Assembly (NCBI GenBank): GCA_024654535.1
Contig: JANLHL010000038.1
Location: 1-39,580 of the forward strand
Direction: 5' to 3'
DNA from: Candidatus Roizmanbacteria bacterium
Lineage (GTDB): Bacteria > Patescibacteriota > Microgenomatia > UBA1406
Length of the DNA stretch: 39,580 nucleotides
The notes under the pieces were generated by a model that saw only the letters and a list, made by a program, of their open reading frames with translations, was not told the origin of the DNA and ran no database searches. Position numbers and translations under genes: made by a program. Positions 27,749 to 35,511 of the stretch are shown piece by piece. The first letter of the stretch is position 1. Every line of letters starts with the position of its first letter.

Positions 27749-27865
27749 CCACTTCGCTCTATCGAGCTTCGTTAGGGACACCACTTCTAGAATATTTTTC
27801 TAGTCTAGAAAAATAAAAGGTGCTGTGCACCTAACGTAGTCCCGATATTAATCGGGACGAAGTGG
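27749..27865. repeat. Nested palindromes at the tmRNA 3' end
   Basis: GTCCCGAT-ATTA-ATCGGGAC, CGTTAGG/CCTAACG and CCACTTCG/CGAAGTGG pairs. Confidence 0.6.
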
Positions 27866-28244
27866 TGGAGATGCCCGGAGTTGAACCGGGGTGCATAAAA
27901 GAAAAGCGAACAGACTTTTATTGAGCAAGTTTCAGTTTCGATTACTCAAAACAGGTGAAATCATTTTATCTTGGTGCTTGCACGATAGATTTCTTCTCTT
28001 GCAAGTCCGAAAGCCGAAGGTTTTCGCCACAGCTTGTGTATCGGCGTAAACAGTGTGACGTCTTAGCAAGCTAAGAAAGACAACTTCGTTTACGCTGTTG
28101 CGTAAGCGAATTGCATACCAGAGAAGTATTCTCTAGCTGCTGCTGCCTCTTCTGCTTCATTATTTGCAGTTGTTGTACTATTTAACGCAATAGATTCGAC
28201 TTGCAGTCCGAACGTATTCTTCCATGTCGATGCCCGACATCCCC
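27863..28244 (-). ncRNA. ssrA: tmRNA
   Basis: 5' GGGGATG...TCGAC, 3' T-arm CCCGG-TTCAACT-CCGGG then CATCTCCACCA. Tag frame 28167-28090; directly downstream of smpB. Confidence 0.95.
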
Positions 28245-33175: not shown

Positions 33176-34951
33176 TCACTTTACCGTTACACTTTTTGCA
33201 ATATTACGTGGTCGATCTATGTTATTTCCCAACTTTTTAGCCATATAATAGGCAAGAAGCTGTAGAGGTACCACGTGCATAATTGCGCTTGTTTCAGCCT
33301 CTTTTGGTACAGGTATATGTATGTCCATCCCTTCTTCTTTATCAGCGGAGATGCCTATGACCGTTGCGCCACGAGCTTTTACCTCATGCATCGCGTTCAT
33401 CATATCGCTGTATACAGAGTCGCGAGAGAGAGCGGTAACTACGATAACTCCTTTTTCCATGAGCGTAATAGCGTAGTGCTTTAGATCACCTGCAGCAATA
33501 GCGTGTGCGTGTTTATAGGTACCCTCTATAAATTTCACCATACCTTCCCTCACGATTTGCAGATTTTGATATTTACCCATGAGAAAGATATCGTGTTTTT
33601 TTACAAGTATACGTGCTACTTCCTTCAGCTGTTTATGTGTCTCTGGTTTTTGTAAGTAATCACCCATGTCGTGTGACAACTTTTCTAGCTGTTTAAGTGC
33701 GTCAGTCCGTTTATTTGCAACTGTTTTCGCAAGTAAGTATCCCCACGCAATCTGTGATACAAATATCTTGGTAGACATTACGCAGATTTCAGGCCCCGCC
33801 TGTGCCATAAATGCAAAATCAGAGAGCCTACTCATCATGGACCCTGGCATATTCACAAATGATGCTATGACTGCTTTCTTGATTCGTGCATGCTCGATTA
33901 CCTCAAGTACATCTGCGGTTTCACCGCTTTGAGATGGGGCAATGATAAGGTCATCTGGTGTAAAATAGTCGTAGTATTCTTTTGCGTCTGCACCTACTAA
34001 ACCAACGGCATCTATATGTGCGTATTCACGTAAATAAAATGCTATCTGAGCCGCTGCAATTCCTGCAGTGCCAGATCCAACTGCATACACTCTTCGAGCG
34101 CGTTTTATAGCTTGTGCTAGTCGTTCATATTCTTTTGCTGGTTGTTTGAGGAGTGCCGCTATGACCTGCGGATTTTCATGAATTTCTTTGAGCATATAAT
34201 GCTCATAACCCGCTTTGTCTACTTCGCTATGACGAGTCGAAACATGTTCATAGTGCATAGAAATAGATTTTCCTGTTTGTATATCCTGACAGCTAACCTC
34301 TGACTTAGTAGCACGTATGAGTTGTCCATTGTCTACCATATACATGCCATCGACGTATGGTGCAAAGGATAATGTATCAGATGATATATACAGAGTCCCA
34401 TTTTTTGTGTTTCTGCCAACTACCAAAGGTGAACCATTTCGTGCAGCGATTATTTCTCCTTCTGTAGTAATAAGAGCTATGGTATTTCTACCAGAAAGCT
34501 GCTTAAAAGCTTGTTTTACTGCATCAAGTAGTGATGTAGTCTTCGTTTGTTCGTATTCGATCAATCTCACGATAACTTCTGTATCTGTTTCTGTATGAAA
34601 TGTGTAACCAAGCTGAAACAATTGTTTTTGTAATTCTTTATAATTTTCGACAATACCATTTTGGGCAAGTGCAAATGATTTATCGGTCGAAAAATGTGGG
34701 TGTGCGTTGCGTTGTGTCACTCGTCCATGCGTAGCCCAACGAGTATGTCCTAGTCCAGCGTGAGACGACGGTAATGTGAGCGCTTTTTCTACGTCTCCAA
34801 TTGGTCCCACTTGTTTTACTACTGTAAGCGTATGTTTCGCTGCGACTGCAATTCCCCATGAATCGTATCCTCGATATTCAAGTCGTTTGAGTCCGCGAAC
34901 TATCATTTCAGAAGCGTTACTATCCCCAATATAACCAAATATTCCACACAT
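33176..34951 (-). CDS. glmS: Glutamine--fructose-6-phosphate aminotransferase
   Basis: MCGIFG, LEYRGYDS, GHTRWATHG, SQSGETAD, PRNIAKSVTV. Confidence 0.97.
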   Translation of the reverse strand: MCGIFGYIGDSNASEMIVRGLKRLEYRGYDSWGIAVAAKHTLTVVKQVGPIGDVEKALTLPSSHAGLGHTRWATHGRVTQRNAHPHFSTDKSFALAQNGIVENYKELQKQLFQLGYTFHTETDTEVIVRLIEYEQTKTTSLLDAVKQAFKQLSGRNTIALITTEGEIIAARNGSPLVVGRNTKNGTLYISSDTLSFAPYVDGMYMVDNGQLIRATKSEVSCQDIQTGKSISMHYEHVSTRHSEVDKAGYEHYMLKEIHENPQVIAALLKQPAKEYERLAQAIKRARRVYAVGSGTAGIAAAQIAFYLREYAHIDAVGLVGADAKEYYDYFTPDDLIIAPSQSGETADVLEVIEHARIKKAVIASFVNMPGSMMSRLSDFAFMAQAGPEICVMSTKIFVSQIAWGYLLAKTVANKRTDALKQLEKLSHDMGDYLQKPETHKQLKEVARILVKKHDIFLMGKYQNLQIVREGMVKFIEGTYKHAHAIAAGDLKHYAITLMEKGVIVVTALSRDSVYSDMMNAMHEVKARGATVIGISADKEEGMDIHIPVPKEAETSAIMHVVPLQLLAYYMAKKLGNNIDRPRNIAKSVTVK

Positions 34952-35013
34952 ATAAATTTTTAAATTAGTAATGGTGCGCATGTATGCGCACGCTCCGCAT
35001 GATAGGGAAGAAA

Positions 35014-35233
35014 CTGTTTTGAGTTTCCTTTGTCCCGTCTATTACTAAACGGTTTTGAGAAACACATAAAGACAAACAGCAAAATGCCTAAGGGTTTCCG
35101 CAGATTCTTCACATTCAAATTATTGAACATGAGTCCGATTCTCACCACGTTCATGTTATTTTGCTGAACGTGACAAGCCCTTTCCTCGTATTCCCACGTT
35201 CATGTACTATCACTGAATGTGGGACCACACGCC
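35014..35233 (-). ncRNA. glmS ribozyme, expanded variant
   Basis: In the glmS 5' UTR: GGCGUGUGG-P1-ACGAGG-AAGGG...AUCG...GCGGAAACCCUU, P3 GGCA/UGUC, P4 GUUUC-UCAAAA-CCGUUUA-GUAA-UAGACGG-GACAAAG-GAAAC, and pseudoknot CUGUU/AACAG. Confidence 0.8.
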
Positions 35234-35313
35234 GAAATTTAATTTTTTAAATTCTTCCACATCAAAGAGCTATGGGTATAGGATACCACACTGGAATATC
35301 CAATATCAAATAA

Positions 35314-35390: not shown

Positions 35391-35439
35391 CCAATAATTA
35401 GTATTAAAGGGGGGAGAGTTGGCATTAGGCGGTACGTTG

Positions 35440-35511
35440 TGCACCCGCTTGGGATCGAACCAAGGACCCCCACTTTATAAGAGTGATGCTCTACCACTGA
35501 GCTACGGGTGC
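35440..35511 (-). tRNA. tRNA-Ile(UAU), CCA not encoded
   Basis: GCACCCG/CGGGTGC acceptor with A discriminator, TCACT-CT-TAT-AA-AGTGG, GGTTCGATCC. Confidence 0.9.

Follow-up and report, generated by a model that had tools for sequence, protein, structure and literature searches.

A glmS ribozyme with three sibling hairpins in a Microgenomates-group bacterium and an expanded, apparently undescribed subclass among its relatives

The glmS ribozyme of Bacillus cereus is described as a 142-nt RNA with eight helices (PMC1635283). In the canonical structure, helix P2.2 consists of the pairs C2-G56, G3-C55, C4-G54 and C5-G53 with position 6 bulged, and the 5-53 pair is poorly conserved (PMC7125110). 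G1, C2, the two P2.1 strands CGA and UCG and the GCGG motif have been assigned to the active site or the cofactor pocket (PMC7125110, PMC8495972). A review states only that one nucleotide upstream of the cleavage site is required. Here, we describe a glmS ribozyme in a stretch of 39,580 nt (contig JANLHL010000038.1, positions 1 to 39,580; the whole stretch is called the window below) from a Candidatus Roizmanbacteria bacterium. The ribozyme is encoded on the minus strand and occupies 35233 (position -1) to 35014, in the 5' untranslated region of glmS, a gene that lies on the same strand (33176..34951, start codon ATG at 34951); 62 nt separate the end of the ribozyme at 35014 from the start codon. 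The gene codes for 591 amino acids beginning with MCGIFGY and containing the Pfam domains GATase_6/7 and SIS. Proteins with 56 to 60% identity to this GlmS come from metagenome-assembled genomes (MAGs) that bear the names Levybacteria, Daviesbacteria, Microgenomates and "Patescibacteria group", and the host, whose genome comprises 1.27 Mb with a completeness of 98.5%, is a bacterium of the candidate phyla radiation (CPR; Patescibacteria, Microgenomates group).

Like the ribozymes of Bacillus and Thermoanaerobacter, the element stands upstream of glmS and carries G1 and the core letters ACGAGG, AUCG and GCGG. It also shares with them the topology of P1, P2, P2.1 and P2.2, the helices P3, P3.1, P4 and P4.1 with a GNRA loop, glucosamine-6-phosphate (GlcN6P) as the presumed cofactor and the presence of an RNase J homologue that could degrade the product. 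It differs from them in its length (220 nt from position -1 through the end of P3.1 versus 142 nt), in having G rather than A at position -1, in a P2.2 that reads GCGUG/UGCGG with two G-U pairs (GCGCC/GGCGG in the Rfam consensus), in carrying helices (here called H2 and H3) in place of the single-stranded P2-P2.1 and P2.1-P2.2 linkers, and in an additional helix between leader and trailer that encloses the whole ribozyme. An earlier reading of the letters alone (the sequence-only reading) had recognized the ribozyme with all the elements that it listed, its excess length and the two G-U pairs, and each of these observations held. Judged from sequence, the element is very probably functional as a ribozyme, and we consider it probable that it is a GlcN6P-dependent member of an expanded glmS subclass of the CPR, with hairpin slots that local duplication has overwritten.

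The window element belongs to the glmS ribozyme family. The Rfam model RF00234 matched 35010-35192 with 42.5 bits (cut-off, 37; E of 8.9e-7 over the whole window), and this locus was the only match in the 1.27-Mb genome. The match that the sequence-only reading had expected was thus obtained, with the 5' half misaligned: the cleavage motif lies 52 nt upstream of model position 13, and 102 nt upstream of it in the relative L020. Of 20 related loci, 18 have the motif GCG[CU]G[UC]G[GA] at model position 13. The register as drawn by Rfam, in which H2 is taken as P1, UGAGAA is aligned to the core GACGAGGA and P2 does not pair, was rejected, since it is contradicted by the relatives and by R1, a covariance model made from 64 relatives with the window and its sister lineage excluded. 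R1 matched 35086-35240 with 79.6 bits (E of 3e-20) and aligned P1, ACGAGG, P2, AAUCGGAC, H3 and AUCUGCGGAAACCC in register. Since R1 places G1 at 35232, the register of the sequence-only reading, with cleavage between 35233 and 35232, is right, and that of Rfam is an artefact of long insertions. The same distortion of the alignment explains the low Rfam score. Among 61 genomes of the same order, including that of the host, RF00234 matched in 22 at an E of ≤1 and exceeded the cut-off in 18. L019 and L020 scored below the cut-off, with 36.5 and 29.3 bits, and L096 was missed altogether; all three have the full core motif and long inserts.

R1 puts the predicted cleavage site (35232..35233; all features below are on the minus strand as well) between G(-1) (35233) and G1 (35232), which is followed by CGUGUGG. 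The 5' strand of P2.2 (35226..35231) comprises C2, G3, U4, G5, a bulged U6 and G7 (assignment after PMC7125110), and then comes P1 (35193..35223; CCCACAUUCA / UGAACGUGGG), a hairpin whose 10-bp stem has one A.C mismatch and whose loop has 11 nt (-14.4 kcal/mol, pair probabilities of about 1). The ACGAGG core (35184..35189) provides the 5' strand of P2.1 (CGA) and the active-site guanines and is invariant in 64/64 relatives. The P2 5' strand AAGGG (35178..35182) pairs with CCCUU (35090..35094). H2 (35141..35177; CUUGUCACGUUCA / UGAACGUGGUGAG), with 13 bp, including 3 G-U pairs, and an 11-nt loop, is inserted between the P2 5' strand and A-AUCG (35136-35140). In AUCG (35136..35139), UCG is the 3' strand of P2.1 and has been described as part of the cofactor pocket (PMC7125110); it is invariant in the relatives, and the A before it is the same in 63/64. 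A reading of AUCG as a separate stem with CGGA/UCUG closing it is incorrect, as its partner is the CGA of ACGAGG. After GAC follows H3 (35109..35132), a hairpin of 9 bp with a 6-nt loop (-8.0 kcal/mol) in the linker from P2.1 to P2.2, and then AGAAUC-UGCGG-AAA. This contains the 3' strand of P2.2 (35098..35103; C52, U53, G54, C55, G56 and G57), whose CUGCGG is invariant in the relatives (UGCGGA at 35097-35102). The peripheral domain (35014..35089) consists of P3 (35070-35089), P3.1 (CUGUU at 35075-35079 with AACAG at 35014-35018) and P4/P4.1 with a GUAA loop, and it was aligned to Rfam positions 88-167 with high posterior probabilities. The minimum-energy structure of the whole ribozyme region (-71.5 kcal/mol, z-score of -3.85) includes all three hairpins. 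The window has all of G1, C2, ACGAGG, (A)UCG and GCGG, and, apart from the A mentioned, these letters are invariant in the alignment of 64 relatives. Because pocket and core letters are retained, there is no basis for the changed ligand dependence that had been considered, and a different ligand is not indicated by the sequence.

In P2.2 of the window, C2-G56, G3-C55 and G7-C52 flank the two wobble pairs U4.G54 and G5.U53. The 20 motif loci of related genomes all have A or G followed by GCGUGUGG (one has GCGCGUGG, the GCGCG exception), with UGCGG opposite, and the predicted GCGUG/UGCGG helix is clade-wide. The metagenomic relatives cannot be used to test the spread of GCGUG because they were picked by a pattern that demanded it (GCGTGTG, ACGAGG and AATCG were required; at least 118 stretches matched, 80 were used and 60 of the 80 could be parsed fully). 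Covariation in P2.2 is weak because the sequences vary little there; one relative, L140, has U4-A54. Five glmS ribozymes from MAGs labelled Saccharibacteria or Dojkabacteria (L040, L044, L047, L048 and L054) have the 5' end GCGGCUGG or GCGACUGG with CAGCGG opposite, which does not fit the canonical P2.2 register.

The same 20 loci fall into 10 minimal ribozymes, 1 with H3 only and 9, including the window, with both H2 and H3, and at least 118 metagenome stretches match the pattern that requires H2. The insertion sites have common flanks, GGG-[H2]-A-AUCG-RAC-[H3]-AG(U/A)AUC-UGCGG-AAA, and the expanded ribozymes of the Microgenomates group (such as L019, L020, L038, L041 and the sister lineage L123/L145) share the core letters and both insertion sites with the window. 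Among the 68 distinct expanded sequences, the H2 and the H3 segments each folded into a single hairpin in every case, with at least 5 pairs in 67 (H2) and 66 (H3). The covariation test that the sequence-only reading had suggested was carried out with 64 aligned sequences. The base of P1 was paired in 92.7% of the cells, with double changes in 4 pairs, P2 in 82.2%, also with double changes in 4 pairs, and H3 in 92.6%, with double changes in all of its 6 pairs. The covariation score was 0.721, compared to 0.251 in shuffled alignments, none of which (0/500) reached it, and a slide of the partners by one column lowered pairing from 88.4% to 54 to 62%. H2 was not called by RNAalifold on the MAFFT alignment because of a one-column variation in its register. 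Covariation supports H3, and the folding of each sequence is the main support for H2. From these comparisons, an expanded glmS subclass with a wobble-containing P2.2 and ten predicted helices is common in CPR bacteria of the Microgenomates group. A search for glmS ribozymes together with CPR or Patescibacteria found nothing in the literature covered, to which the main comparative survey (McCown 2011) did not belong, and the subclass is, provisionally, apparently undescribed so far. The expansion that the sequence-only reading had taken for a structurally novel variant is real but not peculiar to this locus.

Selection on the window copy can be judged against a metagenomic sister lineage, L123/L145, which is about 90% identical across the whole leader. 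The window differs from L123 at 23 positions of the 224-nt ribozyme. These differences alter 11 modelled pairs, 9 of which are standard in both sequences; 2 of the 9 are double GC-to-AU compensations, in P4 and P4.1 (35050/35037 and 35063/35023), and the remaining 2 altered pairs are paired in the window and mismatched in L123. Some of the substitutions run through G-U pairs. In the window, 67 of the 68 modelled pairs are standard, the exception being the A.C of P1. The sister has A at position -1 and an H3 loop that is 5 nt longer than that of the window.

P1, H2 and H3 of the window resemble each other, unlike those of most expanded relatives, in which the three hairpins are unrelated to one another. 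P1 and H2 form a 28-nt direct repeat with 79% identity at a spacing of 49 nt, their loops are both 11 nt long, and the 12-mer ACAUGAACGUGG, noticed already by the sequence-only reading as an exact repeat, occurs at 35194-35205 in P1 and at 35145-35156 in H2. The arms of H3 match its siblings at 7/8 letters each, and there is perfect 8-nt cross-complementarity of the P1 5' arm with the H3 3' arm and of the P1 3' arm with the H2 5' arm. L123/L145 has the same three siblings, each with an 11-nt loop, and therefore the triplication is older than the split of the two lineages. By our own count over 27 positions, orthologous copies differ at 2 to 4 and paralogous copies at 4 to 6; since paralogues differ only a little more than orthologues, the duplication is only slightly older than the split. 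For the apparent kinship of H3, we rely on the 7/8 arm matches and the sister lineage. Local duplication, with the three hairpins as paralogues, explains their likeness best.

Similarity of this kind recurs in other relatives. Within-ribozyme similarity exceeded the 99th percentile of between-ribozyme similarity for P1-H2 in 7, for H2-H3 in 4 and for P1-H3 in 1 of the 68 distinct sequences, and for any pair of hairpins in 11/68. In the metagenomic L136, H2 and H3 are exact reverse complements, which could form two hairpins or one 16-bp duplex. No further sibling was found in the 1.27-Mb genome: a pattern search gave the three leader copies and one other match at chance level, and blastn-short gave no other full-length copy. 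We rejected the idea that the window hairpins are a genome-wide repeat or a regulon motif, as the motif is confined to the ribozyme leader. The module CTGAGCGAAGCGAAGG was also tried as a genome-wide repeat; it was only weakly enriched over a reversed-pattern control (8 versus 2 and 6 versus 4) and was not used. The relative G058 (L011 and L223-L237) fits the pattern of palindromes dispersed through a genome like repetitive extragenic palindromic (REP) elements, whereas the window siblings are confined to the ribozyme and arose locally. The P1 hairpin of its ribozyme is itself a copy of a 15-nt palindrome that occurs at least 15 times exactly across that genome and for which 46 matches with ≤2 mismatches on both strands were counted, versus 0 for the reversed control; thus, a hairpin slot of the ribozyme can hold a copy of a genome-wide palindrome. 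One copy, L230, may lie in the 5' region of a large-subunit rRNA. Taken together, the data point to P1, H2 and H3 as structural slots that are free in sequence, that turn over rapidly and that, in the lineage of the window, were filled by local copies.

Sibling hairpins could act as a conformational or kinetic switch if register-shifted pairing (the 3' arm of P1 with the 5' arm of H2, the 3' arm of H2 with the 5' arm of H3, or the 5' arm of P1 with the 3' arm of H3) trapped an inactive fold and so added a second layer of control. The perfect 8-nt complementarities would allow this, and the A.C mismatch in the P1 stem makes the P1 5' arm fit the H3 3' arm better than its own partner. In addition, the H2 loop (35158-35166) is complementary at 9/9 positions to the P3 loop (35077-35085), overlapping a strand of P3.1 (-11.4 kcal/mol, z of -3.7). 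However, the local hairpins total -35.9 kcal/mol, compared to -16.2 kcal/mol for the best shifted combination and about -6 kcal/mol for single long-range helices, the local stems have ensemble pair probabilities of about 1, the substitutions relative to L123 preserve the local pairs, and the complementarity of the H2 and P3 loops is weaker in the sister (-6.5 kcal/mol). Mutually exclusive folds of comparable stability, by which a conformational riboswitch is recognized, were not found. The capacity to cross-pair is itself uninformative because common descent gives any two hairpins this ability. A switch is therefore quite improbable, and the added conformational layer proposed by the sequence-only reading was not borne out; as part of the overall explanation that we favor, the ability to cross-pair is probably a by-product of shared ancestry. 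Kissing contacts among the P1, H2, H3 and P3 loops were also considered for the whole class, and comparison of cognate with non-cognate loops gave no signal (p of 0.27 to 0.81).

A protein-binding layer had been proposed as well. A single RNA-binding protein or oligomer might use the three repeated hairpins as its binding sites and in this way scaffold or gate the ribozyme. Indeed, one RNA projects three similar hairpins, the arrangement is preserved in the sister lineage, and sibling hairpins recur in other lineages. The same slots, however, hold unrelated sequences in sister genera, the loops are not conserved across the copies (for H3, 6 nt in the window versus 11 nt in L123), the motif has a single, chance-level match elsewhere in the genome, and no candidate protein was identified; we found nothing that supports such a layer and consider it quite unlikely. 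The inverted repeats could also be DNA operators, bound by a dimeric transcription factor inside the transcribed leader, since there are three of them with 8-bp half-sites within 112 bp. But the spacers are unequal (11, 11 and 6 bp), the substitutions between the lineages pass through G-U pairs, which are meaningful in RNA only, 1 other match in 1.27 Mb is no regulon-like recurrence, and the hairpins of relatives at the same ribozyme positions are unrelated in sequence, all of which makes operators extremely unlikely. More generally, an additional layer of control over GlcN6P sensing exerted by the triplicated hairpins together with the complementarity of the H2 and P3 loops, be it by gating the folding in competition with P3.1 or as a repeated platform for a trans-acting factor, is quite unlikely. 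The likelier, broader version is a distinct ten-helix glmS subclass of the CPR whose slots would have been overwritten repeatedly, by internal duplication and by genome-wide palindromes.

Upstream of the ribozyme, a promoter-like site (35280..35309, minus strand) with TTGATA, an 18-nt spacer and TATCCT, preceded by TG, was found by a consensus scan only (9/12 matches); both hexamers are identical in L123/L145. The transcript may start near 35273, and the leader between the promoter-like site and the cleavage site has about 40 nt. The first 20 nt or so of the putative transcript, upstream of the cleavage site, contain the 5' strand (35252..35270) of a helix, P0, whose 3' strand (34992..35012) is the trailer directly after P3.1, so that P0 encloses the whole ribozyme. 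A repeat search gave 13-nt arms with 85% complementarity, and the duplex has -21.7 kcal/mol (z of -2.7 versus non-cognate trailers). Read by eye, L123 retains the pairing via G-U and G-C exchanges, and analogous helices with different sequences are found in several relatives, among them L002, L004, L005, L006, L013, L041 and L069. Across 97 distinct leaders, cognate duplexes averaged -16.9 kcal/mol versus -14.2 kcal/mol for non-cognate ones (Mann-Whitney p of 6.7e-9); this test was made on restricted stretches, as long ones gave noisy long-loop duplexes. A z of < -2 was reached by only 19/97 leaders, and one family (L007-L015) shows no such helix. We speculate that P0 may act as a clamp on the ribozyme and may keep the 5' end hidden until cleavage occurs and, as part of the broader version, that cleavage would then unmask the mRNA for decay. 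Between P0 and the start codon lies a trailer hairpin of 7 bp (34974..34991, minus strand); its stem differs in L123 with pairing kept, again by eye. It is not followed by a U-run, and there is no Shine-Dalgarno sequence before the glmS ATG. In the leaders of many metagenomic relatives (L105, L110, L111, L113, L116, L117, L120 and L122), a Shine-Dalgarno-like AAGGAGG is located upstream of the cleavage site; the window does not have one.

In the mechanism that we propose, transcription would start near 35273, and the RNA would fold into the double-pseudoknot core (P1, P2, P2.1 and P2.2) with the peripheral helices P3, P3.1, P4 and P4.1. GlcN6P would occupy a preformed pocket, and cleavage between 35233 and 35232 would leave an RNA with a 5'-OH. 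This product would be degraded, by analogy to Bacillus via the RNase J homologue, and less GlmS would be made. All three slots would have been filled with copies of one hairpin by local duplication or conversion shortly before the split from the sister lineage. We infer cleavage, cofactor dependence, start site and decay route.

Several observations weigh against this interpretation. Position -1 is G in the window and in only 11 of 100 distinct relatives, with A in the other 89, and a measurement on a G(-1) variant was not found in the glmS ribozyme literature, which was covered in part. Covariation in H2 was not shown beyond two base pairs, which were paired in 79.2% of the cells. By local-alignment score, the window passes the 99th percentile for P1-H2 only; H2-H3 scores 9 and P1-H3 scores 6, compared to 99th percentiles of 10.0 and 9.0. 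The claim of the sequence-only reading that three sibling hairpins can cross-pair was thus upheld for the P1/H2 repeat and the 8-nt complementarities but not for the similarity of H3 to the other two by this measure. The invariance of the letters that the search pattern required is partly circular in the metagenome set. Finally, the RNase J homologue in the host genome matches its profile over the full length (positions 2-545/546), but its 394.3 bits are just under the curated cut-off of 400. The unusual G(-1), together with the wobble-rich P2.2, the core insertions and an Rfam score just 5.5 bits over the cut-off, could also mean that what remains is a relic in decay that has lost the ability to cleave. 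However, the low score is the alignment artefact described above, given the 79.6 bits obtained with R1, the nearly complete set of standard pairs and the compensatory changes relative to the sister argue against decay, and the relatives with G(-1) span several lineages, including L019 of the window's own family. Since the sister lineage has A, G(-1) is a recent substitution of a recurring kind. A relic is therefore very unlikely, and a functional ribozyme of the expanded subclass remains the explanation that we prefer.

Two other RNA genes were seen in the window. A tRNA-Ile with the anticodon UAU is located upstream of the ribozyme (35439-35511, minus strand); the conserved stretch between it and the promoter-like site was searched for structure, and nothing significant was found (fold z of -0.72). 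TilS (TIGR02432) had no match in the 98.5%-complete genome, which would fit a lysidine-independent reading of AUA. A tmRNA was matched at 27863-28244 (minus strand) by Rfam with 76.8 bits and an alignment accuracy of only 0.56, and the tag peptide given by ARAGORN has 25 residues.

What makes these findings of interest is the subclass, with the turnover of its hairpins, more than this locus alone. Feedback on glmS by a GlcN6P-responsive ribozyme would be extended to the ultrasmall bacteria of the CPR. Since Rfam misplaces the cleavage site of expanded ribozymes and scores them below the cut-off or misses them, they are under-called and mis-drawn. Both single-stranded linkers of the catalytic double pseudoknot appear to tolerate full helices in nature, which may be of use in ribozyme engineering and structural work. 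Moreover, these ribozymes clearly illustrate how the peripheral hairpins of a structured RNA turn over, with internal duplication in some lineages and a slot that holds a copy of a genome-wide palindrome in at least one relative.

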